NCBI RefSeq assembly: GCF_001465295.1
Contig: NZ_CP011034.1
Location: 1,290,001 to 1,322,000, forward strand
Source of the DNA: Pseudoalteromonas translucida KMM 520
GTDB lineage: Bacteria > Pseudomonadota > Gammaproteobacteria > Enterobacterales > Alteromonadaceae
Direction: 5' to 3'
Length of the DNA: 32,000 nucleotides
Shown: positions 1-32,000 of the stretch, piece after piece
Layout of the letters: the number at the start of each line of letters is the position of its first letter
How positions within the stretch are numbered: position 1 is the stretch's first letter
Position numbers and translations under genes: made by a program
The notes under the pieces: generated by a model
What the model saw: the letters and a program-made list of their open reading frames with translations, nothing else
Databases searched by the model: none
Told to the model about the DNA's origin: nothing

Positions 1-25
1 CTCACGCGGAGAAGGAGAAAGCCTA

Positions 26-550: not shown

Positions 551-564
551 AGAGAGAATTAAAT

Positions 565-1586: not shown

Positions 1587-1597
1587 GGAGGCGAGTA

Positions 1598-2857: not shown

Positions 2858-2882
2858 TTTTTAATGTATATTAGCAATTTTT

Positions 2883-2907
2883 AAAAAGCCCCTCTGGGGC
2901 TTTTTTT
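2883..2907 (+). terminator. Rho-independent terminator after the TonB cluster
   Basis: AAAAAGCCCC-TCT-GGGGCTTTTTTT: a GC stem, a 3-nt loop and a 7-T run. Confidence 0.75.
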
Positions 2908-2913
2908 ATTGGG

Positions 2914-3963: not shown

Positions 3964-3997
3964 CTGCCCCTGTGACTTAACCTTGCCCAATGTGCGC

Positions 3998-4324: not shown

Positions 4325-4384
4325 CGCGTATAACCCCTTTATAATTAGCATTGAGCAATAGGGGTATTATCTAGGTAGATTTAC

Positions 4385-5365: not shown

Positions 5366-5582
5366 AGAGAGATTAATTATGGCTAAATAAAGGGATGTGT
5401 AGTGTAACCGTTAATCATAAATTGATAAATCCGTAATTACCGCGCATAGTTACTTTAGCCAAAAAGTTTACAAATAATTAAAATAAAATGAAATTTTTTA
5501 TTTTTATACAGGTCTACTTAAATACATACTCGTATTTTCCAATTCTTTGGTTATACAATCTTATTAAAAAGAGAGTCATATA

Positions 5583-6017
5583 ATGAATACAATCAAAAAA
5601 AGTTCAATCGCGTTAACACTAGGTGCAGTTGTTGTTGGCTCTGCAAGCTTTGTATCAGTGGATGTGCAAGCAAATCCTTTTGAGTTTCAACAAATGGTTA
5701 CCGGCTATCAAATAGATGCTACCGAAGGTAAGTGTGGCGAAGGTAAATGTGGCGGCGAAGCAAAAGCTAAAAAAGAAGGCAAATGTGGCGAAGCTAAATG
5801 CGGTGCAGATGCAAAAGCTAAAAAAGAAGGCAAATGTGGCGAAGCTAAATGTGGTGCAGATGCCAAAGCTAAAAAAGAAGGCAAATGCGGCGAAGCTAAA
5901 TGTGGTGCAGATGCCAAAGCTAAAAAAGAAGGTAAATGTGGCGAAGCTAAAAGTGGCGCAGATGCAAAAGCCAAAAAAGAAGGCAAGTGCGGTGAAGGTA
6001 AGTGTGGCGGTCATTAA
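5583..6017 (+). CDS. Secreted Cys-repeat RiPP precursor (HvfA-like, EGKCG-repeat metallophore precursor)
   Basis: A signal peptide (…SVDVQA/NP) is followed by 11 Cys, every one in a KCG context. These are arranged as (AKAKKEGKCGEAKCGAD)n. DUF692 and DUF2063 genes lie directly downstream. Confidence 0.8.
   Translation: MNTIKKSSIALTLGAVVVGSASFVSVDVQANPFEFQQMVTGYQIDATEGKCGEGKCGGEAKAKKEGKCGEAKCGADAKAKKEGKCGEAKCGADAKAKKEGKCGEAKCGADAKAKKEGKCGEAKSGADAKAKKEGKCGEGKCGGH
5760..6014 (+). repeat. Five in-frame 51-bp tandem repeats inside the precursor gene
   Basis: Units start at 5760, 5811, 5862, 5913 and 5964, each encoding AKAKKEGKCGEAKCGAD. The copies differ by a few synonymous changes. Unit 4 has TGT/TGC replaced by AGT (Cys to Ser). 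Unit 5 ends GEGKCGGH. Confidence 0.9.
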
Positions 6018-6072
6018 ATTTTATTAAAGTAGAATACTTCAGGTTAAATACTTTAATACCATATAGAATAAA

Positions 6073-6091
6073 GGGCCGGTTGGCCCTTTTT
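6073..6091 (+). terminator. Intrinsic terminator / attenuator hairpin between precursor and maturase genes
   Basis: GGGCC-GGTT-GGCCC followed by TTTTT, 56 nt after the precursor stop and 14 nt before the DUF692 start. Confidence 0.5.
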
Positions 6092-6104
6092 GTTGGGAGT
6101 GGTT

Positions 6105-6962
6105 ATGACACAAATTATAAATACTGACTTAGGTATGGTGGGTTTAGGCTTACGTAGAGAAATGCTTGACGAGTTACTAGTGCATGTACCTAAACAAGTC
6201 GATTTTATGGAAGTTGCTCCAGAAAATTGGCTAAAATTAGGCGGGCGTTTTAAAAAACAATTTAAAGCATTAACCAGTGCTAATAGTTTTGCTTGTCATG
6301 GCTTATCGCTTTCAATTGGCTCAACTGCGCCAATTGATATTGAATTTGTAAAATCACTAAAAATGTTTTTTGATGAACATGATATAAAAATTTACAGCGA
6401 GCACTTAAGTTACTGCTCTGGCACAGGGCATATGTACGATTTAATGCCGATTCCGTTTACTTTAGAAGCGATTGCTCATGTAGTGCCGCGTATCAAACAA
6501 GTACAAGACATATTAGGGCGCCAAATTGCCATAGAAAATGTGTCTTATTACGCAGCCCCTGGGCAGCAAATGTCAGAGCTGGCGTTTACTAATGCTATTT
6601 TAGAGCAAGCTGATTGTAAGCTGTTACTCGATGTGAATAATATTTATGTGAACTCAGTAAACCATGGTTATGACGCAGAAGCCTTTTTAACCGGATTACC
6701 GACACAGCGTATTGCTTACGGCCATGTAGCTGGGCATTACAATGAAGCCGATGATCTAATTGTAGATACCCATGGTGCAGATGTAATTGACCCAGTTTGG
6801 CAGTTACTCGATAAAGCGTACCAAACTCATGGTGTATTTTCGACGCTGCTCGAGCGAGATTTTAATATACCGACCGTTAATGTATTAACCAAAGAGCTAG
6901 ATATTATTCATAACCTGCAAGCAAAATACCTTGATAAATCACTAATCAAGCAGCGAGCTTAA
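6105..6962 (+). CDS. DUF692 / MNIO-family (MbnB/HvfB-like) RiPP-modifying iron enzyme
   Basis: TIM-barrel-like DUF692 hallmarks: GLGLRRE...VDFMEVAPENW...HGLSLSIGS...YSEHLSY...IENVSYY...LLDVNNIYVNSVNHG...GHVAGH...DTHG. I prefer ATG 6105, which has a GGGAG SD, over the TTG 6090 in the ORF track. Confidence 0.85.
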   Translation: MTQIINTDLGMVGLGLRREMLDELLVHVPKQVDFMEVAPENWLKLGGRFKKQFKALTSANSFACHGLSLSIGSTAPIDIEFVKSLKMFFDEHDIKIYSEHLSYCSGTGHMYDLMPIPFTLEAIAHVVPRIKQVQDILGRQIAIENVSYYAAPGQQMSELAFTNAILEQADCKLLLDVNNIYVNSVNHGYDAEAFLTGLPTQRIAYGHVAGHYNEADDLIVDTHGADVIDPVWQLLDKAYQTHGVFSTLLERDFNIPTVNVLTKELDIIHNLQAKYLDKSLIKQRA

Positions 6963-7005
6963 TAAGCATGTCTGAACCTAGAGTGCCTGCAAAAGGAGTA
7001 TTTAG

Positions 7006-7758
7006 ATGAGCTTTATTGAAATACAAAACGAATTCATGGCGCATATTCGCAAACCCAGCCAACATAAAAAGCCGCAAGGGATTGAAGATAGACGCATGGC
7101 GATTTACCGCGATTTATTTTTTAATAATATTGTTGGGTTTATTTCGTCAGGTTTTCCGGTGTTAAAAACCTTATACAGCGATAAACAATGGCAAATGCTT
7201 ATTCGCCGATTTTTTAGTGAATATGATTGTCACTCGCCGTATTTTTTAGATATAGCAGGGGAATTTATTAATTACTTATCAAGTGATTATGAAATGCAAA
7301 AATATGATCCGCCATTTATGCTCGAGCTTGCCCATTATGAATGGATTGAATTAGATGTAGCTATTACACAGCAGGCTGAAAATGAGCAACTCATAGGTTC
7401 TGATCAGGTTGCCTCTGCGCGTCTATATTTATCAAGTACTGCACGTAATTTAAGTTACCAATTTGCGGTGCAAACAATAAGTACGCAGTTTCAGCCGCAA
7501 CAGCCATCAGCACAGCCTAATTATTTTGTAGTATATCGCGATGGCGATGATGAAGTTCAATTTTTAGCAACTAATGCTATGACAGCCTTGTTATTATCGA
7601 TTATAAGTGAGCATGATGGTTTAATACTCGATACTATTTGCGAGCAAGTAACCCGCCATGCTGTGCAGTTTAGCGCTGCACAAATTGCCCAAGGCGCACT
7701 TGTTACTTTACGTGCTATGGCTCAGCTTGGGATTATAGTGACAAAAAATCAAGCTTAA
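7006..7758 (+). CDS. DUF2063-family partner protein (MbnC/HvfC-like peptide-modification chaperone)
   Basis: The N-terminal segment (FMAHIRKP...IYRDLFFNNIVGFISSGFPVLK...W..LIRRFF) is typical of DUF2063. The gene is invariably paired with DUF692 in such loci. Confidence 0.75.
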   Translation: MSFIEIQNEFMAHIRKPSQHKKPQGIEDRRMAIYRDLFFNNIVGFISSGFPVLKTLYSDKQWQMLIRRFFSEYDCHSPYFLDIAGEFINYLSSDYEMQKYDPPFMLELAHYEWIELDVAITQQAENEQLIGSDQVASARLYLSSTARNLSYQFAVQTISTQFQPQQPSAQPNYFVVYRDGDDEVQFLATNAMTALLLSIISEHDGLILDTICEQVTRHAVQFSAAQIAQGALVTLRAMAQLGIIVTKNQA

Positions 7759-7830
7759 GCTCTTTATAGATTATTTTACATCGTTTATTATGACGCCCTT
7801 ATGTGTCGTGCTTAATAAAAGGTTGTAACA

Positions 7831-7953
7831 ATGTCAGATGATAAAGAATTTAAAGATCCGTTCAATGCAGCGTACTTTTTTGGCTTCGTAGCTATATTTG
7901 TAGGTATTGGTTGCTTAAATGCAATTGTTGGCTGGTTTGCTGTGTTATCTTAA
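7831..7953 (+). CDS. Possible 40-aa single-TM micro-protein
   Basis: Found by manual translation: MSDDKEFKDPFNAAYFFGFVAIFVGIGCLNAIVGWFAVLS. It is below the ORF-track cutoff. It lies between the DUF2063 gene and a strong terminator. The SD is weak. Confidence 0.3.
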   Translation: MSDDKEFKDPFNAAYFFGFVAIFVGIGCLNAIVGWFAVLS

Positions 7954-7964
7954 TTATTTATCTC

Positions 7965-7995
7965 AAGGCTGTTGTTACCAACAGCCTTATTTTTT
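7965..7995 (+). terminator. Rho-independent terminator closing the RiPP operon
   Basis: AAGGCTGTTG-TTAC-CAACAGCCTT (a perfect 10-bp stem) followed by ATTTTTT. Confidence 0.75.
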
Positions 7996-8117
7996 AAAAC
8001 TTCCCCTCGCCTGAAACGGTTAAAACACCTTTTATAATAACGTCAAACTCGCAATCAAAGGTCACTTAAGGTTATAATCAGCTGCTTTGTAATATAAACC
8101 ATTGAGCAGTTAAAATT

Positions 8118-8663
8118 ATGACTCAAGTAACACCTGCAATTATCAAAAACAGCATAACTACGATTGCTGATTACCCTAAAGCGGGCATTATGTTTCGCGA
8201 TGTAACGACACTAATGGCAAACCCAGATGCATTTAAAGCGACTATCGATGCTTTTATTACTGCATATAAAGATCAGGGTTTTACCAAAATTATTGGTACT
8301 GAATCACGAGGCTTTATTTTTGGTGCACCCTTGTCTTATGCTTTGGGTATTCCATTTATTCCAGTGCGTAAGCCTGGCAAACTGCCGCGTGAAGTTGTTC
8401 GTCAAGACTACCTACTAGAATATGGCGAAGACACGTTAGAACTGCATGTAGATGCTATCGTTCCAGGTGATAAAGTATTGCTTGTTGATGACTTACTAGC
8501 AACCGGTGGTACTATTGAAGCAACCATTAAATTAGTGCAAAAATTAGGTGGCGAAGCCACTGATGCAGCATTTGTTGTTTCATTACCAGAGCTTGGTGGT
8601 GAAAAGCGTATCGAAAAAATGGGTATTAAAATCCTAAAATTGGTTGAATTCGAAGGCGAGTAA
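8118..8663 (+). CDS. apt: Adenine phosphoribosyltransferase
   Basis: Full-length match to the Apt pattern: [15 protein letters not shown]...[12 protein letters not shown]...[13 protein letters not shown]. It sits upstream of dnaX, as in E. coli. Confidence 0.95.
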
Positions 8664-8666
8664 TCG

Positions 8667-11189
8667 ATGAGTTATCAGGTTCTAGCGAGAAAATGGCGTC
8701 CACAAACCTTTCATGAATTGGTTGGACAGTCTCATGTTAAACAAGCGCTGGTTAATGCGCTAACGCAAAATAGACTGCACCACGCTTATTTATTCACTGG
8801 AACCCGAGGTGTGGGTAAAACCACAATAGCGCGTATTTTTGCTAAAAGCTTAAATTGTGATGAAGGCATTTCGGCAAATCCGTGTGGTCAATGTAGCAGC
8901 TGTAAAGATATAGAAGCAGGACGTTACATTGACCTACTCGAAATAGATGCAGCTTCGCGCACTAAAGTAGAAGACACCCGCGAAATACTCGATAACGTAC
9001 AATACGCACCCACACGAGGGCGCTATAAAGTATACCTAATCGATGAAGTTCACATGCTTTCTAAGCACAGCTTTAATGCGTTACTAAAAACGTTGGAAGA
9101 GCCGCCTGAGCATGTAAAATTTTTACTTGCGACTACCGATCCACAAAAGCTACCAGTCACTATATTATCTCGCTGCTTGCAATTTAACTTAAATGCGTTA
9201 TCGCAAAATGAAATAAAAACTCAGCTTGAACACGTACTGACGCATGAAAAACTGAACTTTGACAACGATGCTTTGCGCATTATTGCCAAAGCCGCAGACG
9301 GTAGTATGCGAGATGCGCTTAGCTTAACCGACCAAGCTATAGCACAAACTAATGGTGATATTAACAACCAAGCGGTACAAACTATGCTTGGTTTAATGGA
9401 CACGCATTATAGCCAAAGTTTACTAGCCGCGTTACTTGCCCAAGATGGCGCAGCGCTAATGAAAGAAGTAGCAAATGTTGCTAGCAGAAACCCTAACTTT
9501 GTGGCCTTACTAGATGATTTAATTGCATTAACGCATTTGACACAGTTAAGCCAATTAGTACCTGAAGCTGCCGCTCTTGATGAAACAAATGCCGATTACA
9601 TCACGCATGTTGCTCAAAATACAAATCCACAGCAAATTCAAATTTACTATCAGCTACTGTTAAACGGTAAAAAAGATCTACAATGGGCGCCAGAGCCTCG
9701 TTTAGGCTTTGAAATGATTATGCTAAGGCTGTTAGCGTTTCAACCAATTGATACACAAAACCAGCAACCAGTAGCTGTAAATACACAGCCTGTGCAAAGT
9801 AATACGACAAAGGCCAGTGCCTTACGTGATATTTTAAATAAAAGTAAACCGCTGCCAAGCACAGCTCAAAATAATGATACAACGCAACCACAAATTATTG
9901 AGCCAAAACCAGCTGAGGTCGCTAAGCTATCAGAGCCGCAAAACGTAGCGCCCGACACTCTTAATAATAACTCTAATACAACGCAGCAGGTTTCTACAAC
10001 TGTATCAGCAGGAGAGCAAGCAGTTGTGTCGGCTGTGCAAAATGAAGCGGTGAGTGAGCAATTAGTTACTCAGCAACATCAGCATACAAATGATGTAACT
10101 GACGAGCAAGCGCAGCGTCAAAGCGAAGATGAGGCCTACTTACAGCAAAGTAATTTAGAGCACTCATTAGCGGCACAGTTTGATGATGTTATTAGTAGTG
10201 CGGTTGATCAAGGGTTTAACCCTGCAACAAATACGGCAGCGCAAGCTCAGCAAAGCCAAGCGACAGACACCTCAATTAGCGAACAAGAAGCGCGAGCACA
10301 ATCTGCTATTGCACGTATTTTAAGAGATAGAAATATATCGGGTGCGGGTAAGCTCTCAAATGCAAAAGAGACTGAGCAGCAAAATACAGCAAATTTAAGC
10401 TCTGCTAACAGTCGGCCGAGTCGCTTTACTGCTAATAGCAGTAACAGCAATGAGCAAAATGTTACAGCAAATAGCGATGCAATTAATCACAGTAGAGCTA
10501 ACAATAATGCGCAGCAAACACACACAGACAATCCGCCGCCGTGGCCTAATGATTTCGCAGGTGAGAGCGAAAAAAAGCCACAGCTCCCACTAGCGGGGAG
10601 CCAAAACAAGGCAGCAAGCCAAGCTCAGTTTGAGTCAAAACCTGAGCGAAAAATAGACTTTAAAGCAAAGCACCAAACAATTACCGAAAATTTAGCCCCT
10701 GAGCTACTTGAGCAAATTAACCCGCAAAAAGTACCCGAAGTTGTTGTAGCGCAGCCTAGCATTCCAGCGCCTGATGATTTTCAGAGCCCAATAAGCGAAA
10801 TTCGCTTTGCGCATCAGCAAGACGAGTGGGCATATTTAATTAAACGCATGGGATTAGGCGGGCGTATGCGCCAGTTTGCGTTGCACTCTATTTTTACTAA
10901 GCAAGGCAATAATTTGCATATAGATGTTGATGAATCACAAAAACATTTAGATACGCCCATGCTACGCCAAAGACTTGATGCGGCGTTATCCAGTATTTAT
11001 GAGCACAATGTAACACTGAGTATTAATTTTGCTAAAGGGGTGATTGATTCGCCTTATTTAATTCAACAAAAAATTGATGCAGGTCGTCATCAGCAAGCAA
11101 TAGATGTGATCACCTCAGACGATAATATAGTACAATTTCAGCAGCTATTTAGTGCCGAAATTGACGAAAACAGCATTCAGGCATTGTAA
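8667..11189 (+). CDS. dnaX: DNA polymerase III subunit tau (and possibly gamma)
   Basis: The N-terminus is canonical: MSYQVLARKWRPQTF..LVGQ.HV...HHAYLFTGTRGVGKTT, a Cys4 zinc module and LIDEVHMLS. This is followed by a very long Q/N/S/T-rich linker and a conserved C-terminal tau region. Confidence 0.95.
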   Translation: MSYQVLARKWRPQTFHELVGQSHVKQALVNALTQNRLHHAYLFTGTRGVGKTTIARIFAKSLNCDEGISANPCGQCSSCKDIEAGRYIDLLEIDAASRTKVEDTREILDNVQYAPTRGRYKVYLIDEVHMLSKHSFNALLKTLEEPPEHVKFLLATTDPQKLPVTILSRCLQFNLNALSQNEIKTQLEHVLTHEKLNFDNDALRIIAKAADGSMRDALSLTDQAIAQTNGDINNQAVQTMLGLMDTHYSQSLLAALLAQDGAALMKEVANVASRNPNFVALLDDLIALTHLTQLSQLVPEAAALDETNADYITHVAQNTNPQQIQIYYQLLLNGKKDLQWAPEPRLGFEMIMLRLLAFQPIDTQNQQPVAVNTQPVQSNTTKASALRDILNKSKPLPSTAQNNDTTQPQIIEPKPAEVAKLSEPQNVAPDTLNNNSNTTQQVSTTVSAGEQAVVSAVQNEAVSEQLVTQQHQHTNDVTDEQAQRQSEDEAYLQQSNLEHSLAAQFDDVISSAVDQGFNPATNTAAQAQQSQATDTSISEQEARAQSAIARILRDRNISGAGKLSNAKETEQQNTANLSSANSRPSRFTANSSNSNEQNVTANSDAINHSRANNNAQQTHTDNPPPWPNDFAGESEKKPQLPLAGSQNKAASQAQFESKPERKIDFKAKHQTITENLAPELLEQINPQKVPEVVVAQPSIPAPDDFQSPISEIRFAHQQDEWAYLIKRMGLGGRMRQFALHSIFTKQGNNLHIDVDESQKHLDTPMLRQRLDAALSSIYEHNVTLSINFAKGVIDSPYLIQQKIDAGRHQQAIDVITSDDNIVQFQQLFSAEIDENSIQAL

Positions 11190-11252
11190 TTTATTACAAC
11201 TGCCCTTATTTAGTAACCTAGTTAATGTATTAAAAAAGAAAGAGAGAAAGTT

Positions 11253-11579
11253 ATGTTTAAAGGTGGAATGGGTAACATGATGAAGCAGGCGCAGCAAATG
11301 CAAGATCGCATGCAAAAAGCCCAAGACGAAATTGCAACATTAGAAGTTGTAGGCGAAGCCGGTGCCGGTTTAGTTAAAGTAACTATGCTAGGTAACCACA
11401 ACGTTCGCCGCGTAGAGCTTGATGAGAGCTTAATGCAAGACGACAAAGACATGATTGAAGACTTACTTGCAGCAGCATGTAACGATGCTGTTCGCCGTGT
11501 AGCAGACGAAACACAAGAGCGTATGGGCAAAGTAACTGGCGGTATGCAATTACCACCAGGTATGAAAATGCCGTTTTAA
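11253..11579 (+). CDS. ybaB: YbaB/EbfC nucleoid-associated protein
   Basis: 108 aa, [17 protein letters not shown]...[10 protein letters not shown]......ELD, typical of YbaB. Conserved dnaX-ybaB-recR order. Confidence 0.9.
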
Positions 11580-11585
11580 GCCTAT

Positions 11586-12194
11586 ATGCAACTTTCAGCT
11601 AGTTTAACTCAGCTTATAGAGGCATTGCGTTGTCAGCCGGGCATTGGCCCTAAGTCAGCGCAACGTATTGCTTTTCACTTGCTAGAGCGCGACCGTAAAG
11701 GGGGCACTCAGCTTGGCAATGCACTGACAAAAGCTATGACGGCGGTTGGTCATTGTGAGTCATGTCGCACTTTTTGCGAGCAGTCGCAGTGCGACATTTG
11801 TTTAAGTACTAAACGCCAAGACAGCGGCATATTATGTGTTGTTGAATCGCCAAGCGACGTACTTGCTATAGAGCAAACAGGTCAATATTTAGGGTTGTAC
11901 TTTGTATTAATGGGGCATTTATCGCCTATTGATGGTATTGGCCCTAAAGAAATTGGCCTAGATGTTTTAGAGGCAAAGTTGGCACAAAGCGGTATAAACG
12001 AGGTGATTTTAGCAACCAACCCTACGGTTGAAGGCGAAACCACGGCACATTATATTGCTCAGCTTTGTCATAAATACAAAGTAGGTGCTTCGCGTATTGC
12101 TCATGGTATACCGGTAGGTGGTGAGCTTGACTTAGTCGACGGTACAACGTTAATGCATGCCTTTAGTGGCAGGCGAACGGTAACACAAGACTAA
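11586..12194 (+). CDS. recR: Recombination protein RecR
   Basis: HhH motif ([15 protein letters not shown]), a C4 zinc finger (CESC..C....CDIC) and Toprim ([12 protein letters not shown]...). Confidence 0.95.
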
Positions 12195-12223
12195 CTGATA
12201 ACTGCTGTTAGAAATTGTAAAAA

Positions 12224-12256
12224 AAGCCTGCATAATTAAGTTATGTGGGCTTTTTT
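12224..12256 (+). terminator. Probable intrinsic terminator after recR
   Basis: An imperfect stem, AGCCTGCATAA / TTATGTGGGCT, followed by TTTTTT. Confidence 0.5.
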
Positions 12257-12547
12257 GTTGTACGTAAGCCAACTAGATTAAAGACGTGCATTGCCAGTAT
12301 GATCATGTTTTTTTAATTGGATTGGTATAAATATTAAGCCTACTAATTCAGGCATAGTAAGTAACCTAAACTCCGGATAATAAACCTATCTCAAGCAGCT
12401 ATTGACGCGTAAATTCGCCTTGTTTTCACTGAAAACCTCAGGCTAGAGAAATTAATTTAAATATAATTATGATTCAATACGTTAGTAAATCTCTTAACCA
12501 GAGTTTAGGTTAAGCAGTATAACCAGTCCTAATTTTAAGGAATAATT

Positions 12548-13267
12548 ATGCCGACTCCTGACTCTGATACCATGATTATAGTTGATGATTTTGTAGCTCC
12601 ACAGTGCGATGGCTTGGTTGAAATCCTCTTTGCAGATGAAGACATTTTATTGATCAACAAACCCAGTGGTTTGTTGAGTTTGTCGGGGAAAAACCCGCTC
12701 AATTGGGATTCTGTGCATTATCGTTTAGTGAATGGGCAAGCAGGTATTACGGCTGCGTACCCCGAGGCTAAGTTACCGCACAGGTTAGACTTAGGTACAT
12801 CGGGCATTATGGTTGTGGGATTAAACGCAGCGGCTGCTAAGCATCTAAATAAACAGTTTCAGGCGCGTACAATTAAAAAGCGCTATGTAGCCATATTACA
12901 CGGGTGGTTAATTGACGACGAAGGGCAAATTAGTGCGTCGATAGCAAAAGATAAACTGCTTTTTCCGCGGGTTAAAATCTGCGAAGCCACAGGCAAAACT
13001 GCCGTAAGTGAATATAAAGTGCTGCAACGCCTAACGCAACCACAGCGAACCTTAGTGCAATTTACACCCATTACAGGGCGTACGCACCAATTGCGTATTC
13101 ACAGCCAGTTTATAGGGCACCCTATTTTAGGGTGCGATTTATATAACAATGCACAAAGCGAGCATATGGCAGCGCGCTTACAGCTTCATGCAAGTGATTT
13201 GTATTTTCAGCACCCGGTAAGCAATGAGCAAATTCATATGCAATGCGCTAGTACGTTTTATTTTTAA
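12548..13267 (+). CDS. RluA-family pseudouridine synthase
   Basis: Catalytic motif HRLDLGTSGIMVV, plus KRYVAI, GRTHQLRIH and LHA..L motifs of the RluA family. The AAGGA SD is correctly spaced. Confidence 0.85.
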   Translation: MPTPDSDTMIIVDDFVAPQCDGLVEILFADEDILLINKPSGLLSLSGKNPLNWDSVHYRLVNGQAGITAAYPEAKLPHRLDLGTSGIMVVGLNAAAAKHLNKQFQARTIKKRYVAILHGWLIDDEGQISASIAKDKLLFPRVKICEATGKTAVSEYKVLQRLTQPQRTLVQFTPITGRTHQLRIHSQFIGHPILGCDLYNNAQSEHMAARLQLHASDLYFQHPVSNEQIHMQCASTFYF

Positions 13268-13301
13268 GACAATATTGGTTGGGACTTTTTTTATTTTTTC
13301 C

Positions 13302-13328
13302 CTTGAAGTTCTAGCAGCTCCCCCATAT
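13302..13328 (+). promoter_or_regulatory. sigma32 (heat-shock) promoter of htpG
   Basis: CCTTGAA (CTTGAA at 13302-13307), a 13-nt spacer, then CCCCATAT (13321-13328). This fits the CTTGAA-N13-17-CCCCATNT consensus and lies 43 nt upstream of the htpG ATG. Confidence 0.65.
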
Positions 13329-13370
13329 TAAGTGCATAACGCAGACACTTTGCAAATTGGAGATATATTA

Positions 13371-13451
13371 ATGACTGCAGCACAAAAAGAAACATTAGGC
13401 TTTCAAACAGAAGTAAAACAACTATTAAACCTGATGATCCATTGTATTTAA
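13371..13451 (+). pseudogene. htpG: 5' fragment of htpG (Hsp90), truncated by prophage insertion
   Basis: The fragment translates as MTAAQKETLGFQTEVKQLLNLMIH-CI-stop. E. coli HtpG begins ...[22 protein letters not shown]. Identity stops after His24 (about nt 13442), and an integrase gene follows. Confidence 0.8.
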
Positions 13452-13570
13452 ACATTCCACGCTATTTATTTTTATCTCCCTTTTAGTCCTGTTATCCACG
13501 TAAAAACAACAACTTAAACCACCACTAACCACTCCTATCTACTACTAACTATCTTTATATATCGCTGTTA

Positions 13571-13641
13571 TTGGTGACAATTGTGTACCAAGGTGTGTAC
13601 CATTTTATTATTGGCCTCAAATTTGGTCACATTTGGTACAC
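13571..13641. repeat. Short repeats next to attL (candidate integrase arm-type / Xis sites)
   Basis: GTGTACCA at 13583-13590 and 13595-13602 (direct), and TGGTACAC at 13634-13641 (inverted). TTGGTGACA (13571) and TTGGTCACA (13623) are also present. Confidence 0.4.
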
Positions 13642-13656
13642 AGAGTCGGAGCATCA

Positions 13657-14856
13657 ATGAACATAACAGCAGCTAAGCTAAAGAGTTTGAACGGTAAAGA
13701 GTATGCCGGCAAACCTGAGCTAACGGATGGCGATAGCTTATCCATAAGGATCTCCCCAAAGGGAAAGATCACCTTTCAAATACGCTATAGAATAGATGGT
13801 AAGCAGGCACGATATAAAATTGGCACTTACCCTACAATGACGCTTGCACAGGCTAGGGAAAATTGTGCGGAGCAAATGAAGTTTGTTGCGAAGGGTTTAG
13901 ATCCTCGGAAAATGGAAGCTGTAAAATCTGTTTTAGTTGATCATATAGATAACCCAACTATTAATGACTGCATTGAATACTGGTTTAAAAATTACTGTTT
14001 GCCCAGACGAGATAAGCCGGCTGAAATTAAATTGCGTATTACTTCATGCTTAAGAACCCTATGGGCAAAGCAATACGTGTCAATCATGGATAAGACGCAC
14101 TTTGCAGCAATGTTTAAAGCGATGAATGATAAGTCAATTGAAAAGGGGCGGGGTAAGGGGTTTTCGTTTAACGCGATAATTGAGATCAGATCTGCGCTTA
14201 GGTTTTGCGTTCGCCAGGGGTTTATTGATAACACCCAATTTGAAGCTTTGCGCCCTGGTGATTTTGCGAGTGACTATGACGTTCGTGAGCATTATTTATC
14301 AATACAAGAGTGCCAGTTAATTTGGGCCCATGTTGATGAGTTGAATATAACCGATAGAAATAAGGTTATTCTGCGTTGCGCTATGGTCTTTGGCTGTCGC
14401 ATAAGCGAGCTGTGCAGTGCGAAAAAAACAGACTTTGATTTAAAGGCAATGCTATTCACTACGCAAAGAGAAAATACAAAAGGTGCTTTGCATTCTATTG
14501 TTAGGCCTATACCACCTGATTTAATTGCTGATCTGCAGCATATGAAAGAGCAATCGCCTTCATTTAAGCACATGTTTCCTAATCGTGATGGCGATTACCC
14601 AGCTAACAGCTCAAGTGTTAGCCAAATATCTAAAGCATGCCATCAAGAAATAGAGGGTGTTGCGCCGTTTAGAATGCATGATTTAAGACGGACAATATCA
14701 ACACATTTAACTGATGCGGGATGCCCTTTGCAATTTACTGAAAAATTACTAGGGCATAAAATGAAAGGCGTGTTGGCGATATATAATAAATCGCCAATGC
14801 TCGATGGTTTAACCGAATGGGTTAACCGGTGGGTGATCATGCTGAAAGGCGAATAG
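13657..14856 (+). CDS. int: Tyrosine integrase (P4/DUF4102-arm type)
   Basis: The N-terminal arm-binding pattern (L.D.....L.IRISPKGKITFQIRYR..GK..R..IG.YP.M.LAQAR) and the C-terminal catalytic region (RISEL....HDLRRT......LLGH) are present. ATG 13657 has a GGAG SD. The track's TTG 13633 is less likely. Confidence 0.9.
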   Translation: MNITAAKLKSLNGKEYAGKPELTDGDSLSIRISPKGKITFQIRYRIDGKQARYKIGTYPTMTLAQARENCAEQMKFVAKGLDPRKMEAVKSVLVDHIDNPTINDCIEYWFKNYCLPRRDKPAEIKLRITSCLRTLWAKQYVSIMDKTHFAAMFKAMNDKSIEKGRGKGFSFNAIIEIRSALRFCVRQGFIDNTQFEALRPGDFASDYDVREHYLSIQECQLIWAHVDELNITDRNKVILRCAMVFGCRISELCSAKKTDFDLKAMLFTTQRENTKGALHSIVRPIPPDLIADLQHMKEQSPSFKHMFPNRDGDYPANSSSVSQISKACHQEIEGVAPFRMHDLRRTISTHLTDAGCPLQFTEKLLGHKMKGVLAIYNKSPMLDGLTEWVNRWVIMLKGE

Positions 14857-22167: not shown

Positions 22168-22812
22168 TTAAAAATCCTGAATAACCTGTTTTACCACGCC
22201 AATGATAGTGCAGTTTCCATTAATTGGCATGGTTGGGTAGCTGTTATTAAAGGGCTTTAAATATTTGGCCCCGCCATCTATCACTAACTGCTTTAGAGTG
22301 GCTTCTTCACTATCGTTTAACATCGCTACTACAACTTTACCATGCTCAGCACCAATGCAAGGATCCACGATAATTACCGAGCCTTCGGGAATTGATTTGC
22401 CGCCGGTAAAGCTGGTCATGCTATCCCCCTTAACGCGCAGAGCAAATGCTTCGTCACTTACGTTGGCGGTGTGCTGATAAAAAATAGTATCACTAGTTTG
22501 TTGCAGCACTTCCATGTCGATCTCTTTCCATTTACCTGCTTGCACCCATGATATTAAAGGTGCTTTGCCCCTTAAGTCTGGCCCAAGCTCTAATTCCACA
22601 TTGCCTTCCGGCACTCCTGAGCCTGACGCTAACCACCTGGCATTGCATCTTAGTGCTTTAGATAGCTTTAATAAATTTTCACTTGATGGGATTACTTGGC
22701 CTGTCCGCCAGTGACTAACAGAAGCTCGACCAGTCCCTAGCTGTCTAGCAAGCTCACTACCTTTTATTCCAAGTTGGTTCATTCGTGAAATCAAGCGTTC
22801 TGAAAAGCTCAT
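22168..22812 (-). CDS. cI: CI-type prophage repressor (XRE HTH + S24 LexA-like peptidase domain)
   Basis: N-terminal HTH (LGIKGSELARQLGTGRASVSHW) and a C-terminal S24 domain with the catalytic Ser motif VKGDSM and a downstream Lys. It is divergent from a cro-like gene. Confidence 0.9.
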   Translation of the reverse strand: MSFSERLISRMNQLGIKGSELARQLGTGRASVSHWRTGQVIPSSENLLKLSKALRCNARWLASGSGVPEGNVELELGPDLRGKAPLISWVQAGKWKEIDMEVLQQTSDTIFYQHTANVSDEAFALRVKGDSMTSFTGGKSIPEGSVIIVDPCIGAEHGKVVVAMLNDSEEATLKQLVIDGGAKYLKPFNNSYPTMPINGNCTIIGVVKQVIQDF

Positions 22813-26928: not shown

Positions 26929-27299
26929 TTAACTTAACTCTGCCGTACCCGCCAACAGTTAACCATTACTGGAAATCAACAGTAAAGCGCGTTGCAGGCA
27001 ATAAAGGTCGGGTGATAACGCGCGTAAGCGATGAAGGCAAGGCATTTGCTGAACAAGTGTTTTGGTTAGTGCGCGAGCAAAAAGCCCATAAAAAGCTTAA
27101 AGCAGATTTAAAGCTAGTTATACACATTTATGTGCCGGATAGACGTAGGCGTGACATTGATAACTTAAGCAAGTCTTTATTTGATGCAATGCAAAAAGCT
27201 GGTGTCTATGAAGATGATACGCAGATAAAAGACTATCGCATGATCCACAGTGGAATAGTCAAAGGCGGAAAAGTTACACTGAGCATTGAGGAAATATAA
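26925..27299 (+). CDS. rusA: RusA Holliday-junction resolvase
   Basis: LTLPYPPTVNHYW ... RRRDIDNL.K.LFDA...GVYEDD.QI are classical RusA motifs. Confidence 0.85.
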   Translation: MINLTLPYPPTVNHYWKSTVKRVAGNKGRVITRVSDEGKAFAEQVFWLVREQKAHKKLKADLKLVIHIYVPDRRRRDIDNLSKSLFDAMQKAGVYEDDTQIKDYRMIHSGIVKGGKVTLSIEEI

Positions 27300-27300
27300 C

Positions 27301-27861
27301 ATGCAGCCAATTAAGCTACTGTCTAAGTTAACAACGAAAACACTAAACCTTACCGGCACTTTTGGCGGTAGTGGGCAAGACGTTATAGATTGGCGAACAG
27401 CAGCACATGCTTTAGCCGGCTTGCCATCTTGCCAAACAAATTGGGCTTACTTTCGTTATGTAGGGGAAGAAACAAGGCTTAATCGTGTTATACGCTCACT
27501 TACAATGCACATAACGCTATTTATCAAGATAAAACGCTATAAGGTTAAGCCTGAAACGTTAAACGGCATAGTAATGTCAGCGGTTTATGAATTTGTACAG
27601 CCTGTATGTGGTGAATGTGACGGTAGTGGATTAGCTCCAGGGCAAGTAGCAACGAACCTAGATGCTCAGATTTGCATTAAGTGCCATGGGCGAGGACGAA
27701 AGCCAGTATCAACACGCAGTAGATGCAAGATTATAGGCATCGGACATAAAAGCTATACTGACAGCCATGATGACATTACGAAAGAGCTACTGCGCTTAAT
27801 AGCCGGCTGGGAAAGCGATATATTTAAAAATATACGGGTAAAAATGGGGGAGGTTGCTTAA
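27301..27861 (+). CDS. Lambda-Q-family late antiterminator
   Basis: The double CxxCxGxG zinc motif (CGECDGSGL ... CIKCHGRGRKP) and overall layout parallel lambda Q (CRDCHGTGR ... CGRCKGVGY). ATG 27301 has a GAGGA SD. It is the last gene of the nin region. Confidence 0.65.
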   Translation: MQPIKLLSKLTTKTLNLTGTFGGSGQDVIDWRTAAHALAGLPSCQTNWAYFRYVGEETRLNRVIRSLTMHITLFIKIKRYKVKPETLNGIVMSAVYEFVQPVCGECDGSGLAPGQVATNLDAQICIKCHGRGRKPVSTRSRCKIIGIGHKSYTDSHDDITKELLRLIAGWESDIFKNIRVKMGEVA

Positions 27862-27980: not shown

Positions 27981-28973
27981 ATGGATAAGAACGAATACTG
28001 GAAATTGGAAATAGTTGCGTTCTACGCACTACAGTCCATCCATGGTATTGGTTTTAGAACTCTATATAAAATTGCTGCTAAAAAGATCAGTTTTCGAGAT
28101 TTAATTAAAACAGATGACTACTTATATTTTGAGAAAACCTTAAGGCTAAAGTTAGAAGATTCGGCTATTGAGTCGGAAGAGAGTTGGGAGCAATATAAGA
28201 AAGATTTGTGGGTCAGAGGTGTTGAACTTGCGCGAAAATGTCAACGTGAAAATATCCGAGTCATTTTTTATGATCAAGAGATATTCCCAAAACAATTAAG
28301 ATCTATCCCAGAGCCACCAATGTGGCTTTTTATTCAGGGTAATTTAGCTAATTTACATAATAGATCTGTTGCCATTGTAGGCAGTAGGAAAGCGACTGAA
28401 GAAGGGTTATGGCTAACTACATTAGTAGTTGCGGCTATGGCTAAGGGAGGATTAGTATCAGTGAGTGGCCTTGCTGAGGGGATTGACCAAAAGGCTCACA
28501 TAGATTCATTGCGGTTCAAAATCCCGACAATAGCGGTCCTTGGTACCGGTATAGATAGCAATTACCCTAAAGGCTCTGAAGTTATAAGAGCAGAAATATT
28601 GGCTAATGAAGGAACCATAGTTTCAGAATATCTAATAGGTCAAAGCTATAGCGCTCAAAACTTTGTTCGCCGAAATCGAATTCAAGCTGGATTAGCTGAG
28701 ACAATTATACCAGTAGAGTGGAAGGTTAAAAGTGGTACTGCGCACACAGTTAATTTTACCAAAGAATATAATCGCTTTCTTGTTATGCCTCATTTGCCGA
28801 ACACGGTTGATAATGATGAGCTACAGTTAGTTCGTTCTTACCCTTTAGGGTTAACATTTTGCGTCCCTGAGCATTCAGGAGCGCTTATTGACTTCATATT
28901 TCACCCCTATGACAAGTTAACTCATGTTGTTGAATCAGGTGAAGGTAATAATCAAATTCAAATGGATATATAG
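27981..28973 (+). CDS. DprA/Smf-like (SLOG-fold) protein, ShosA-like
   Basis: An HhH-like N-terminus (LQSIHGIGFRTLYKI) and DprA Rossmann motifs: VAIVGSRKATEEG, SGLAEGIDQKAH, IAVLGTGIDSNYP, FVRRNRIQAGLA and KSGTAHTV. GGAGAG SD. Confidence 0.8.
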   Translation: MDKNEYWKLEIVAFYALQSIHGIGFRTLYKIAAKKISFRDLIKTDDYLYFEKTLRLKLEDSAIESEESWEQYKKDLWVRGVELARKCQRENIRVIFYDQEIFPKQLRSIPEPPMWLFIQGNLANLHNRSVAIVGSRKATEEGLWLTTLVVAAMAKGGLVSVSGLAEGIDQKAHIDSLRFKIPTIAVLGTGIDSNYPKGSEVIRAEILANEGTIVSEYLIGQSYSAQNFVRRNRIQAGLAETIIPVEWKVKSGTAHTVNFTKEYNRFLVMPHLPNTVDNDELQLVRSYPLGLTFCVPEHSGALIDFIFHPYDKLTHVVESGEGNNQIQMDI

Positions 28974-28981
28974 GAAGTAGC

Positions 28982-30223
28982 ATGGCAGCAAAAAAACTTA
29001 AAGGTGTAATACTAAGTGTAGAGAATACAATCTTAAATGTTGGAAATATAGATAATGATGTATTCACTGAAGTAAGAAAGCTTATGAATTACTTCAAAAC
29101 CCGTGGAATAACACCTGTACTTTTGGCAAATAGAAGAAGAACTGTTACGTATCGTGGAGTTCCAAGGGATTTGTACGAATACCTAGAAGAAATATTCGAT
29201 GAGCTTGTTGTATTTACAAGGTTACGCAATCCCGAGGTGCCACCAAAGCCACAAGCTGCAGCAACTAAGTATGTCTTAGATAAAATGGGATGGGAATCAA
29301 ACGAAGTTATCTATATAGGAAGTAGTGATGATGACATGCGGACAGCATTAAATGGAGATATATTATTTTTACGTGGAACCTGGTATGCAAATAATACAGA
29401 TTATGGCTTTGAGTTTAACGAGGTAAAAGAAATTGCCAGGTTCATAGATACATTGTGTCTACGTGAGCATTTTTGGAGCCATGAAATAAAAGATGGTGAT
29501 TTAGAGTATTACGCGTTAGCACCTTTTAGCACTTATAAAGAAGCTTTTAGGAAGTACTCAGAAAATGCGCGCGCTGCAGCTAAGTTTTTGGGGAGAGGTG
29601 ATGTTGATTTTTGGCTTGGTGCACTAGTCACGAGTATGTACTTTACTGGGATTCATAAACGAATTGACTTTGTTGCAGCTTATCCTGGGCATAGAGCCAG
29701 TGTAGGCAATGACAAAATGAATGATGAGCTTATGACATTTGCTAAATGCTTTAGAAAAGGTTACTTACATAATGTCATAGAGCGCCACACAACCGCTTTG
29801 AAATCTCAGACTGCTAGAAATCAACGTGTTCATTTAGATCATCATAATCAACTTAATACAATCAAGCTTAATAAGTTCCCAACAAAAAACTTTACAACAG
29901 TCTATAAGAAATCCCCTTTAGCTAATGGAAAAACGCTTTTGTTGGTCGATGACATATGCACAAAAGGTTATTCGCTCGAAGCTGCAAGAAAGTATGTTGA
30001 GAGAACTCGAGCTAAGACAATACTGGTTACGTGGTTAAAAACTATTAACACGGATTATTTTACTATTGGCGACCCTGGTACATTTAACCCATATCAAGCT
30101 AATACGTTTCAAAACGTGCCTGTTGGACAGCAGTATAATTACCACGTCTACCATGTTGATGGTGCCGCATCTGAAGAGTTAGCAGACCAATTAGAACAGT
30201 ACATTAATTGGGATTGGCCATAA
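28982..30223 (+). CDS. Two-domain protein: degenerate HAD-like N-terminus + type-I phosphoribosyltransferase C-terminus (ShosT-like)
   Basis: PRPP-binding loop KTLLLVDDICTKGYSLEAA near the C-terminus. The N-terminus has VILSVENTIL where HAD enzymes have DxDxT, and IYIGSSDDDMRTA resembles HAD motif IV. It starts 8 nt after the DprA-like stop. Confidence 0.75.
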   Translation: MAAKKLKGVILSVENTILNVGNIDNDVFTEVRKLMNYFKTRGITPVLLANRRRTVTYRGVPRDLYEYLEEIFDELVVFTRLRNPEVPPKPQAAATKYVLDKMGWESNEVIYIGSSDDDMRTALNGDILFLRGTWYANNTDYGFEFNEVKEIARFIDTLCLREHFWSHEIKDGDLEYYALAPFSTYKEAFRKYSENARAAAKFLGRGDVDFWLGALVTSMYFTGIHKRIDFVAAYPGHRASVGNDKMNDELMTFAKCFRKGYLHNVIERHTTALKSQTARNQRVHLDHHNQLNTIKLNKFPTKNFTTVYKKSPLANGKTLLLVDDICTKGYSLEAARKYVERTRAKTILVTWLKTINTDYFTIGDPGTFNPYQANTFQNVPVGQQYNYHVYHVDGAASEELADQLEQYINWDWP

Positions 30224-30310
30224 GCTAGATAGTGTTTTCAGATACAGATTCAATAATTAGCAGTAAAGGTAGCTTCGTGTTTGATTAACATTTAACGAGT
30301 GCATTACACC

Positions 30311-30453
30311 AGATTGCAAAGATTGCAGGTATAGCGATAACTGCGCACTATAAAAACAAATAACTCATTGAAAATATTTAAAAATAACCACTGCGCACAT
30401 ATAAGTTGCGCAATTACTGCGACATAATGCGCATGAGTGCACCTGCTGCGCAC
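30311..30453. promoter_or_regulatory. Cluster of CTGCGCAC / TGCGCA-palindrome motifs (candidate operator array)
   Basis: Exact CTGCGCAC at 30341, 30391 and 30446. TTGCGCAA at 30406, ATGCGCAT at 30428, ACTGCGAC at 30417. AGATTGCA occurs twice at 30311-30328. All lie upstream of the 30546 ORF. Confidence 0.45.
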
Positions 30454-30545
30454 TAAAGCATGAAGTGAAAATGACGCTAAGGCAGCGTGTGTTACCCATA
30501 AATTAACAGCTATGGACGAAACTGCTAAAAAGGAGAAGGCGAATA

Positions 30546-31277
30546 ATGGAGAAATTTGGAAGGTGCTTTAAATGGATAACTTTCACTTACGTGATATTAG
30601 TTCTGGTCATAATTTTTGCTTACGGTTTTTTTGTTAAAGGAGGTAGCTGGGGCAGTTTAAGTGATGTTGTTATTGCTGTATTTACAGTACTCATTGCTTA
30701 TACAACAAACATGCTATTAATTGCTGCTTGGCTTACTAGTAGCTCTTGGTTAGACCAGAGCAAACATAGCTCAGCTCAAGAGCTTCTTTTGTCACTTTCT
30801 GAATACTACTTTACTATTCATGAAATTAAGACGATGTATATTGAGAAGAGATTTCTTGAAAGCTTTACCAAAATAACTCCGAATAATTATCATAAGCTCT
30901 CCAGCCAAGCGTTAAAGTATTTCGAAGGGACACCTAAAAACGCCACACCAGCTCAACTTGCGCCTTTTTTGGATTTCATATTGCCCACATTTAAAGAGGA
31001 AGCTGAAAAACTAAAGCCTCAAATTTACGCAATTAAGGAAAAATTAAATCAGCTCAAATTTGAAGTTATGACAAAGGCAAGCCCATTCGCAATAGAGATC
31101 GAGCATTTAGATTTTGATTTAATAACAGAGATTAATTTCATGCTAACGATAGATGAAAACATGCACAAAAACGCCAGCCAATTATTTGATAAACTTAGTG
31201 CCGCCACTGGTTATGATGGCTTTAAGTTAATGTATATCGCAGACCCAGTAAAAGACGGGCTATTCAAGGATGCTTGA
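30546..31277 (+). CDS. Membrane protein of unknown function (two N-terminal TM helices + helical soluble domain)
   Basis: Excellent SD (AGGAGAAGG). TM segments ITFTYVILVLVIIFAYGFFV and VVIAVFTVLIAYTTNMLLIAAWL. No recognisable domain. Confidence 0.6.
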   Translation: MEKFGRCFKWITFTYVILVLVIIFAYGFFVKGGSWGSLSDVVIAVFTVLIAYTTNMLLIAAWLTSSSWLDQSKHSSAQELLLSLSEYYFTIHEIKTMYIEKRFLESFTKITPNNYHKLSSQALKYFEGTPKNATPAQLAPFLDFILPTFKEEAEKLKPQIYAIKEKLNQLKFEVMTKASPFAIEIEHLDFDLITEINFMLTIDENMHKNASQLFDKLSAATGYDGFKLMYIADPVKDGLFKDA

Positions 31278-31644
31278 TAGTAATTTTAACAAAGCTGATT
31301 TATATCTTGATTTACCTCATGGCGTATCAGGCTTAATTGAGAAAAACAAAAACGCCACTTTCTACGGCATCGCCAGTGGTCGCTCAATGGAAGGTGTTGG
31401 CATATTCGATGGTGATTTACTTATGATTGATAGAAGCTTAAGTGTAGAGCCTGGTGATGTGATCGTTGCTGTACTTAACGGCCAGTATGTTTGCAAAATA
31501 GCAGACCTTAAAAATAACCTGCTTTTATCTGCAAGTGATGAGTACGGCCCTTATAAACTCAAGGAGGGTGACGAGTTTACATTAGAGGGTGTAGTTAGCA
31601 GCTCAGTTCGCATGCATCGTGGAAATATAAAGGATACTATTTAG
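31270..31644 (+). CDS. UmuD'-like S24 peptidase lacking the cleavable N-terminal arm (HumD-like)
   Basis: ATFYGIASGRSMEG.GIFDGDLLMIDRS....GDVIVAVLNGQYVCK aligns with UmuD [28 protein letters not shown]...GDIVIAAVDGEFTVKK. Only about 30 residues precede the Ser motif. The ORF overlaps the upstream ORF by 8 nt. Confidence 0.8.
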   Translation: MLDSNFNKADLYLDLPHGVSGLIEKNKNATFYGIASGRSMEGVGIFDGDLLMIDRSLSVEPGDVIVAVLNGQYVCKIADLKNNLLLSASDEYGPYKLKEGDEFTLEGVVSSSVRMHRGNIKDTI

Positions 31645-31645
31645 C

Positions 31646-32000
31646 ATGTGTAATACAGAAAAAAAACCAAAGCACAAGCAAGTTTTTGCTATTGATGAGA
31701 GTGAAGGATTGCACAAGAACTATTCTTTTAGGCTGGCTATATTTCTACCTATTGTGTTTTCGGCCGCAATAATTATTATATTCTCTTTACAGCTATGGAG
31801 CGATGGCGGATTTAGATTGGGATTTTCACAATCAGAAGTGTCAGCATTTATTAAATATTTTTCATTTCCAATATCTTTATTGCCACTTAGCATTGTTTTT
31901 GGCGTTATGGTTGCGAGGTTCCATTCGTCAAAGCAAAAGGCAAAAAGCAACTTGATTACTGAGGTTAACAATTCAGTAAATTTTTTTTACAAAACACATG
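31646..32000 (+). CDS. Partial ORF (open to window end): membrane protein of unknown function
   Basis: Found by manual translation: MCNTEKKPKHKQVFAIDESEGLHKNYSFRLAIFLPIVFSAAIIIIFSLQLW...FSFPISLLPLSIVFGVMVARF... The ATG lies 1 nt after the S24 stop. There is no stop before 32000, so it is absent from the ORF track. Confidence 0.5.
   Translation, partial: MCNTEKKPKHKQVFAIDESEGLHKNYSFRLAIFLPIVFSAAIIIIFSLQLWSDGGFRLGFSQSEVSAFIKYFSFPISLLPLSIVFGVMVARFHSSKQKAKSNLITEVNNSVNFFYKTH

Follow-up and report, generated by a model that had tools for sequence, protein, structure and literature searches.

The 32,000-nucleotide (nt) stretch of the Pseudoalteromonas translucida KMM 520 genome analysed here (hereafter the window) covers the left end and the early and accessory region of a lambdoid prophage. 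It closes on three consecutive genes: gene A, which encodes a membrane protein; a gene for a short S24 peptidase related to UmuD (the S24 gene); and a third open reading frame (ORF), which encodes another membrane protein and runs on past the window end. Comparison with related loci indicates that these three genes are not a dedicated system. The S24 protein would be a stand-alone UmuD-derived protease domain that does not cleave itself, carried by a family of lambdoid or P22-like Pseudoalteromonas prophages. In these prophages its gene appears to be a nearly constant anchor with a recombination slot on each side, placed between the gene for a Q-like late antiterminator and the lysis cassette. 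The first of these slots (slot 1) would hold defence-type cargo, here the toxin-antitoxin defence system ShosTA, and the positions directly beside the S24 gene would be occupied by interchangeable genes, mostly for membrane proteins (here A upstream and a type that we call D4 downstream). The A and D genes may be morons (accessory genes that work autonomously), with superinfection exclusion or abortive infection as plausible functions. We consider the structural part of this reading, that is, independent assortment without a dedicated three-gene system, highly probable. For the whole reading, which also assigns the S24 protein a function as a protease acting in trans or as an SOS modulator, our confidence is about 50%.

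Gene content around related S24 genes

We classed the flanking ORFs at about 180 loci that encode S24 relatives, taken from viral, metagenome and genome collections. A canonical class of 113 loci was defined by the cleavage motif [AC]G..GF.SP in UmuD, and in 85 of these the UmuD stop codon is overlapped by an ORF for a UmuC-like protein (about 418-425 amino acids (aa), MYALVDA.SFYASAEKVF...). The window S24 protein belongs to a short clade (58-100% identity to it), where umuC is adjacent in none of the 55 loci. Within this clade, members of the ACA1/C5a-like subclade (58-67% identity) are solo genes, and the annotated ACA1 record is that of a P2-like phage. Its sister, the window subclade (68-100% identity), comprises 35 loci with 22 distinct S24 sequences. 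Wherever the flanks of these loci are visible, the S24 gene lies between a Q-like gene and lysis or packaging genes.

The genes beside the S24 gene are exchanged freely within the window subclade. A downstream ORF begins at most 10 nt past the S24 stop in 32 of the 35 loci, and these ORFs fall into seven unrelated clusters: D1 (about 326 aa), D2 (222-312 aa), D3 (a soluble protein of 108 aa), D4 (the window type), D5, D6 and D7. Six of the seven types carry one to four transmembrane (TM) segments, and the types share neither a common motif nor an Ala/Cys-Gly site. S24 proteins that are 100% identical are paired with D1 in locus L002 or with D4 in locus L003, and proteins that are 94-97% identical are paired with D1 and D2, D2 and D7, or D3 and D5. 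At the nucleotide level, the window and L002 cease to be homologous 8 nt short of the S24 stop codon. Upstream, gene A is found in about half of the window-subclade loci, where it is combined with D1, D2, D3, D4, D5 or D6; in loci without A, the S24 gene is preceded by a gene of 60-62 codons or by nothing.

The flanking genes also occur apart from the S24 gene. The viral contig L182, which lacks S24, encodes a D1 homologue (31% identity, N-terminus near-identical), and the third ORF of the window is 68% identical to a protein that is encoded solo, likewise without S24, on the P. rhizosphaerae chromosome. Two loci, L186 and L187, document a natural deletion of the S24 gene. Both retain a degenerate 3' remnant (4587-4709 in L186, 3532-3654 in L187; 34% identity over 41 codons) of which the last nine or so codons (...MHRGNIKDKL) are still S24-like. 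This remnant lies between an A-like gene whose C-terminal domain is recombinant and an intact D4-type gene.

The initial annotation had presented the three genes as a coupled operon and possible system, and had named a lack of conservation of the trio in other genomes as a ground for rejecting this. Such a lack is what we observe. The combination of A, S24 and D4 recurs only in L003, and neither gene A nor the downstream gene tracks the other or the S24 sequence, so the idea of a dedicated system is given up. Had the trio been a single system, it would have represented a new class of defence system, and the comparative evidence speaks against this. A literature search for a defence system containing an S24 peptidase returned spurious matches only (to the phrase 'Table S24').

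The same observations bear on the proposal, also made in the initial annotation, that the protease triggers a membrane effector. In such a scheme, the S24 protein would respond to a RecA* or infection signal by cleaving or releasing the A protein, the downstream protein or both, leading to depolarisation, abortive infection or lysis control, with the downstream proteins as swappable effectors. The near-abutting downstream genes and the abutment or overlap of each intact A homologue examined with the S24 start would fit this scheme, but tight junctions are generic in this phage and the sister subclade consists of solo genes. Most downstream products are indeed membrane proteins, yet one type is soluble, no site of the expected kind is shared among them, and identical S24 proteins stand beside unrelated ones. 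The catalytic dyad is invariant despite the absence of a self-cleavage site, which favours the scheme; however, D1 and D4 both occur without S24, and L186 and L187 have lost it with the A-like gene and D4 still in place. The cargo region does hold known or candidate defence genes (ShosTA or a NACHT protein), but no family in PADLOC-DB v2.0.0 matched A, S24 or the third ORF at E <= 0.1 in a search that recovered both ShosA and ShosT. We now regard the gating of an adjacent effector as very unlikely. We judge as equally improbable a wider version, in which the S24 protein, as a protease hub responsive to RecA* or infection, would act on any membrane protein encoded beside it. The locus would then be a membrane effector module with exchangeable cassettes, serving abortive infection or the timing of lysis, with the TGCGCA leader and the 60-aa protein described below as regulators.

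Translational coupling had been one reason to group the three genes. The ORFs lie as the initial annotation had placed them, with an 8-nt overlap between gene A and the S24 gene (ATGCTTGA, 31270-31277) and a single nucleotide (31645) between the S24 stop and the ATG of the third ORF, and the three are probably co-transcribed. The tight junctions are thus real. However, start and stop codons overlap or abut at nearly every junction of the rightward prophage operon, so tight coupling is no special mark of the trio. More generally, translational coupling within a compact phage operon should not be taken as evidence of a functional unit.

The loci overlap between collections, so the counts given above are not independent. 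Several points weigh against independent assortment. Nearly all downstream types are membrane proteins, a predominance that may stem from a common functional logic and not from chance; effector exchange without covariation is also seen in modular systems such as CBASS. In addition, every full A homologue examined, down to 36% identity, directly precedes the S24 gene and has a stop codon that overlaps or abuts the S24 start. Gene A was never seen beside an unrelated gene, the exception being L186 and L187, where the S24 gene has visibly been deleted. This unbroken adjacency leaves room for a one-way dependence of A on S24. Still, the A family is tiny, and linkage by descent suffices to explain the adjacency.

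The S24 protein and its candidate functions

At 100% identity, the S24 protein corresponds to PTRA_a1447 of P. translucida KMM 520. It matches the Pfam family Peptidase_S24 (PF00717; E 1.7e-13, with 50.7 bits where the cut-off is 23.3) and, over residues 20-118, PHROG 811 'UmuD-like' (94.4 bits, E 8.5e-27; PHROGs have no curated cut-off). Among PDB sequences, it is closer to UmuD' (E 1.2e-11) than to LexA (E about 3e-7). The same order is found at the level of the fold: the best Foldseek matches of its AlphaFold2 model (pLDDT 84.9) are UmuD' (1AY9 and 1UMU) and UmuD bound to RecA (8GMT), all with a probability of 1.00 and TMt values of 0.79-0.84, followed by the C-terminal domains of LexA and lambda CI. 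The catalytic dyad consists of Ser39 in SGRSM and Lys76 in VCK, and its 37-residue spacing equals that of Ser60 and Lys97 in UmuD. Both residues are invariant among 24 relatives, in agreement with the initial annotation, which had named these two motifs. The E. coli UmuD sequence in our alignment agrees with the PDB alignments. The catalytic block (ASGRSMEGVGIFDGDLL) is fully intact, and from its conservation the motif ASGRSMEGVG...K appears to be under strong purifying selection. We also considered a signal-peptidase-like enzyme serving the neighbouring membrane proteins and rejected it, as both the sequence block and the fold are of the LexA/UmuD type and signal peptidases appeared only at E > 0.02.

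As had been proposed from the sequence, the protein has the length of UmuD' and lacks a cleavable arm. The start codon at 31270 is the first past an in-frame stop, so the protein cannot be longer. It exceeds UmuD' by about three residues, with Met1 at the point where UmuD' begins. Neither the scissile Ala/Cys-Gly bond, about 36-39 residues before the Ser, nor the block GF(P/E)SPAxxY is present in the S24 protein, where the window reads MLDSNFNKADLY. At the position of the former cleavage, members of the window clade have NKAD, and gp4 of phage ACA1 has VGPGI. The nearest cleavable relatives are marine UmuD proteins (MKVIPIYIEAG-ISGFESPAAEYKEL...); compared with these, the window clade is shorter by about ten residues, and GF(E/P)SPAxxY is among the residues lost. 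By sequence, then, the S24 protein is best classified as an uncleavable, short-armed UmuD derivative with an intact catalytic block.

Compared with the UmuD of umuDC operons, the S24 protein shares the fold and the dyad spacing and has 48-57% identity to the marine gammaproteobacterial proteins, to which its catalytic block is near-identical (ASG.SM.GVGIFDGDLL.VDRSL). It differs from them in the lost scissile bond, the lost GF.SPA..Y block and the absence of umuC, and it falls below the family cut-off of the model for the UmuD subunit of Pol V (NCBIfam NF007621; 73.5 bits against 110). The missing umuC partner had been remarked on in the initial annotation, and the wider comparison bears this out. 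No gene for UmuC or another Y-family polymerase is present in the window, and no umuC was found downstream of the S24 gene in L002-L006 or after the third gene in the closest relatives.

A protein that has an invariant protease active site and nothing of its own to cleave points to a substrate in trans. We tentatively suggest that the S24 protein either cleaves a LexA-family protein in trans or serves as a RecA*-linked modulator of the SOS response, a suggestion that we hold with less than even confidence. As a soluble cytoplasmic protease, it would have host LexA, host UmuD or a CI-type repressor as candidate substrates. The CI protein of this prophage is a complete repressor with a helix-turn-helix (HTH) domain, an S24 domain and an Ala-Gly site, and so could itself be a substrate. 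Intermolecular cleavage by UmuD-like and LexA-family enzymes is an established reaction, reportedly described for UmuD-like proteins by McDonald et al. in 1998 and for LexA-family enzymes by Kim and Little in 1993. On the other side of the balance, the Ser/Lys dyad could have been retained for structural reasons. The question raised by this clade is whether a free S24 domain can cleave LexA, CI or UmuD in trans within the cell; if so, it would be a proteolytic anti-repressor or an SOS amplifier.

A different role is suggested by HumD of phage P1, whose orphan gene is annotated as functionally complementing UmuD'. By analogy, the S24 protein would be a ready-made UmuD' surrogate that dimerises and activates host UmuC (Pol V), raising translesion synthesis and mutagenesis in lysogens or during induction. 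Its UmuD' length, its greater closeness to UmuD' than to LexA, and the fact that its nearest cleavable relatives are encoded together with umuC would all suit such a role. The initial annotation had likewise pointed to HumD, and the likeness in architecture stands: HumD and N15 gp26 (annotated in the P1 record) are orphan phage homologues of UmuD' length. HumD resembles the S24 protein in being phage-encoded, in lacking umuC, in retaining the Ser and Lys in the alignment and in lying near genes of toxin-antitoxin type (phd-doc in P1, ShosTA in the window). Family membership does not extend that far, however. The two proteins share 25% identity in the multiple alignment, are not similar by BLASTP (E 24), and the S24 protein scores far below the cut-off of the HumD model (NCBIfam NF051876; 21.9 bits against 120). 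They are, judging from these comparisons, related only at the superfamily level, as independent truncations with analogous architecture.

Conversely to the S24 protein, HumD keeps the N-terminal tail (MGFPSPAADY) and has a degenerate active-site motif (RAADSHHREG). The tail missing from the S24 protein is a conserved feature of E. coli UmuD', marine UmuD and HumD, and the strictly conserved catalytic motif would be needless in a pre-activated UmuD'. Here we thus have a well-sampled clade of phage-borne UmuD derivatives in which the cleavage site and the UmuD' tail are lost and the active site is pristine. P1 humD also has an annotated LexA site, and none is detectable for the window S24 gene under the consensus that we assumed for this host: a scan for CTGT-N8-ACAG with at most one mismatch gave 10 matches in the window where 10.2 were expected. 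One match with a single mismatch lies at 30232-30247, about 300 nt upstream of gene A; as the matches are at chance level, a LexA box ahead of the module was dropped. A mutagenesis accessory is therefore unlikely in our view, and a role of the S24 protein as an accessory subunit of Pol V seems less likely than that of a trans-acting protease or RecA*-linked modulator.

Somewhat more doubtful still is a purely non-catalytic modulator, in which the S24 protein would bind RecA* filaments or form heterodimers with proteins of the UmuD or LexA type and so tune prophage induction or the host SOS response, like 434 Hex or DinI. UmuD on the RecA filament (8GMT, TMt 0.84) is among the two best fold matches, and prophage accessory proteins that modulate RecA-mediated repressor cleavage do exist, such as 434 Hex (PMC3564112). 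A pure binder, however, would need no invariant Ser, Lys and oxyanion motif. Support for a binding role could also be drawn from the Pseudoalteromonas phages ACA1, ACA2 and C5a, whose gp4 ('SOS sensing protease' or 'UmuD-like protein') is the closest described relative of the S24 protein (PMC10612066). The authors of the ACA1 study proposed that gp4 associates with a repressor that has no S24 domain of its own and lends it SOS inducibility (PMC10612066). As the CI of the window prophage carries its own S24 domain and Ala-Gly site, this split-repressor logic does not transfer to it.

ACA1 gp4 and the window S24 protein are 64% identical over residues 28-117 (73% of the protein), and their DNA is 72.6% identical over 146 nt. 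Both belong to the short clade and are stand-alone proteins (about 121 aa for gp4) that retain the dyad intact but have neither a DNA-binding domain nor an Ala/Cys-Gly bond, and neither gene has a umuC partner. Their settings differ: the gp4 gene stands by itself, oriented divergently, within the immunity region of a P2-like phage, whereas the window S24 gene is packed between cargo genes in the Q-to-lysis region of a lambdoid prophage. Stand-alone UmuD-like genes of phages are already known from PHROG 811, P1 HumD, N15 gp26 and gp4 of ACA1 and C5a, and the window locus adds a new genomic setting to these.

Among viral or metagenome contigs, UmuD homologues that bear the Ala/Cys-Gly bond and are not followed by umuC were seen in L038, L041-L044, L132, L133, L138, L063/L065/L180 and L007/L008. 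Cleavable orphan umuD genes thus exist in phages too. The protein of L038 (KINCG-IVG) is intermediate between canonical UmuD and the short clade.

Flanking membrane proteins and the leader region

Both proteins encoded beside the S24 gene have two hydrophobic segments, as the initial annotation had stated. The A protein consists of an N-terminal TM hairpin (residues 11-29 and 41-63, approximately) and an all-helical C-terminal domain of about 175 aa. Its AlphaFold2 model (pLDDT 82.6, all-helical) had no significant fold match in the PDB or BFVD, the best being generic helical proteins (E 0.07-0.6, TM-score < 0.4). Searches of Pfam, NCBIfam, PHROG and PADLOC gave no useful family match, and single-sequence searches found no relatives of A in viral contigs. 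Only 18 representatives of the A family were found among 1.84 billion proteins. The most conserved core comprises the periplasmic loop and TM2 (VKGGSWGSxSDVVIAVFTVLIAYTTN), which suggests that the protein works in the membrane. Both A and the D types could plausibly serve in superinfection exclusion or abortive infection.

To read the region past position 32000, we used the relatives L003 and L101 as proxies; a scan of genome contigs yielded a single close locus, L006. The third ORF is 58% identical to a full-length protein of 292 aa in L003, which matches phrog_17460 (function unknown). In L003, where the S24 protein is 95% identical to that of the window, this gene is followed by lysis and packaging genes. 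Pfam, NCBIfam, PHROG and PADLOC returned nothing useful for the seven D types or for the other cargo genes, and the D types, like A, are without a fold match.

Comparison with L002 and L003 gives the order of the region as Q-like gene, slot 1, TGCGCA leader, optional genes, S24 gene, slot 2 (D1-D7) and endolysin/holin. The optional genes encode a 233-aa membrane protein, a small protein of 60-62 aa and the A protein. Slot 1 holds ShosTA in the window, DUF6236 and others in L002, and a NACHT protein in L018 (566 aa, 3998-5698). A conserved slot-1 pair of about 250 and 132 aa, without a family, was seen in L006 (5601-6773) and L003 (6689-7860). Neither this pair nor the NACHT protein has a PADLOC match, and both are candidate defence cargo.

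The leader is 96% identical to positions 8246-8373 of L002. Five of the 19 TGCGCA hexamers in the window are crowded into 110 nt of this leader, where three of the five form CTGCGCAC(T/A) repeats; they are probably a regulator-binding array. Comparable TGCGCA clusters precede the first module gene in L006, L019, L061, L103-L105, L108, L109 and L030-L032. A scan of the leader for sigma-70 promoters found no site on the + strand. The hexamers were also considered as CI operators; as none occurs in the cI-cro intergenic region, this was dropped. A different repeat array is found in the same position in loci without A and the TGCGCA leader: L013 (5607-6000), and also L016/L017 and L022-L027, have about six copies of CGGAACAA in a gap of some 400 nt upstream of the S24 gene.

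The 60-62-aa protein is a conserved ORFan (MQQKLTNIKVQPVGFGDYCNF...KATIAYKLRALA.KIE) whose gene heads the module in many loci, where it precedes A or S24. Intact copies are found in L006 (7095-7277), L018 (5819-6001) and L105 (4691-4879). In the window and in L002, all that seems to be left of this gene is the 3' end. This assignment stems from a weak tblastn match of residues 37-60 of the small protein to 30464-30538 (32% identity, E 0.004 in a search space of 500 nt), at a syntenic position. A role of the 60-aa protein as a DinI/ImpC-like regulator of UmuD processing was dropped, as it has neither Pfam or PHROG support nor similarity to DinI or ImpC.

Prophage setting of the window

The features of the window are listed in the table below. 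Next to the host genes, the prophage integrase gene adjoins the pseudouridine synthase gene (region 13268-14856). The window contains no tRNA or tmRNA gene, which excludes a tRNA gene inside it as the attachment site. The Q-like assignment of the gene at the left border of the accessory region derives from weak matches to PHROGs annotated as 'anti-termination protein Q-like' (E 1e-3).

Table. Features of the window, in order of position. Positions are those of the 32,000-nt stretch.
Feature	Position	Strand	Description
Host genes	~1-13300		exbB/exbD/tonB, dus, dnaX, recR, pseudouridine synthase gene
Prophage integrase	13633-14856		Arm-DNA-bind_3 and Phage_integrase domains
Leftward early operon after integrase			MT-A70 methylase, SSB, Rad52-like
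CI	22168-22812		HTH and Peptidase_S24 (88.4 bits), VQAG site, GDSM
Gene order after CI			Cro, CII, O, P-like, NinB, RusA, then Q-like gene
Q-like late antiterminator candidate	27286-27861	+	Weakly Q-like Zn-finger protein, after RusA; left border of accessory region
ShosA	27981-28973	+	DprA (Pfam); PADLOC E 2.7e-86
ShosT	28982-30223	+	HAD and PRTase (Pfam); PADLOC E 9.5e-93
Non-coding leader	30337-30464		Five palindromic TGCGCA boxes at 30342, 30392, 30407, 30428 and 30447
Putative 3' remnant of 60-62-aa gene	30464-30538	+	MQQKLTNIKVQPVGF...; no start codon
Gene A	30546-31277	+	243 aa; inner-membrane protein, 2 TM; optional cargo
S24 gene	31270-31644	+	124 aa; orphan UmuD-derived S24 peptidase domain
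Third ORF, D4 type	31646-32000	+	ATG at 31646; first 118 codons, open to window end; 2 TM; cargo in slot 2

The initial annotation had placed the module in a prophage cargo island, and this location is supported. ShosTA occupies slot 1 directly upstream of the S24 module and outside it. The DNA of the Q-like gene is 91-95% identical to that of L002 and L003, with the homology ending at 27860. ShosTA is missing from these two prophages, which are otherwise 91-95% identical, and this indicates a recent insertion of cargo behind the Q-like gene. A non-coding stretch of 322 nt separates ShosT from gene A. The GC content of the accessory region is 0.34-0.40, against 0.435 for the prophage backbone.

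The Q-to-lysis region of lambdoid phages hosts morons. Like that variable region, the window region has a conserved backbone around slots with content that is replaced among close relatives, and it includes a known defence system. It differs in that the conserved S24 gene and TGCGCA leader form an island between two slots, and in that the adjacent cargo consists mostly of ORFan membrane proteins. The S24 gene marks a recombination hotspot in Pseudoalteromonas prophages. Its cargo includes ShosTA, NACHT proteins and no fewer than eight ORFan families of membrane proteins, and the hotspot could conveniently be mined for genes of defence or superinfection exclusion.

In the host flank, a gene for an enzyme of the MbnB/TglH/ChrH family (E 2e-103) lies beside one for a DUF2063/NGO1945-like protein (6090-7758). 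It is preceded by small ORFs at 5583-6027, a layout typical of operons of the ribosomally synthesized and post-translationally modified peptide (RiPP)-like or DUF692 kind, and is unrelated to the S24 module.

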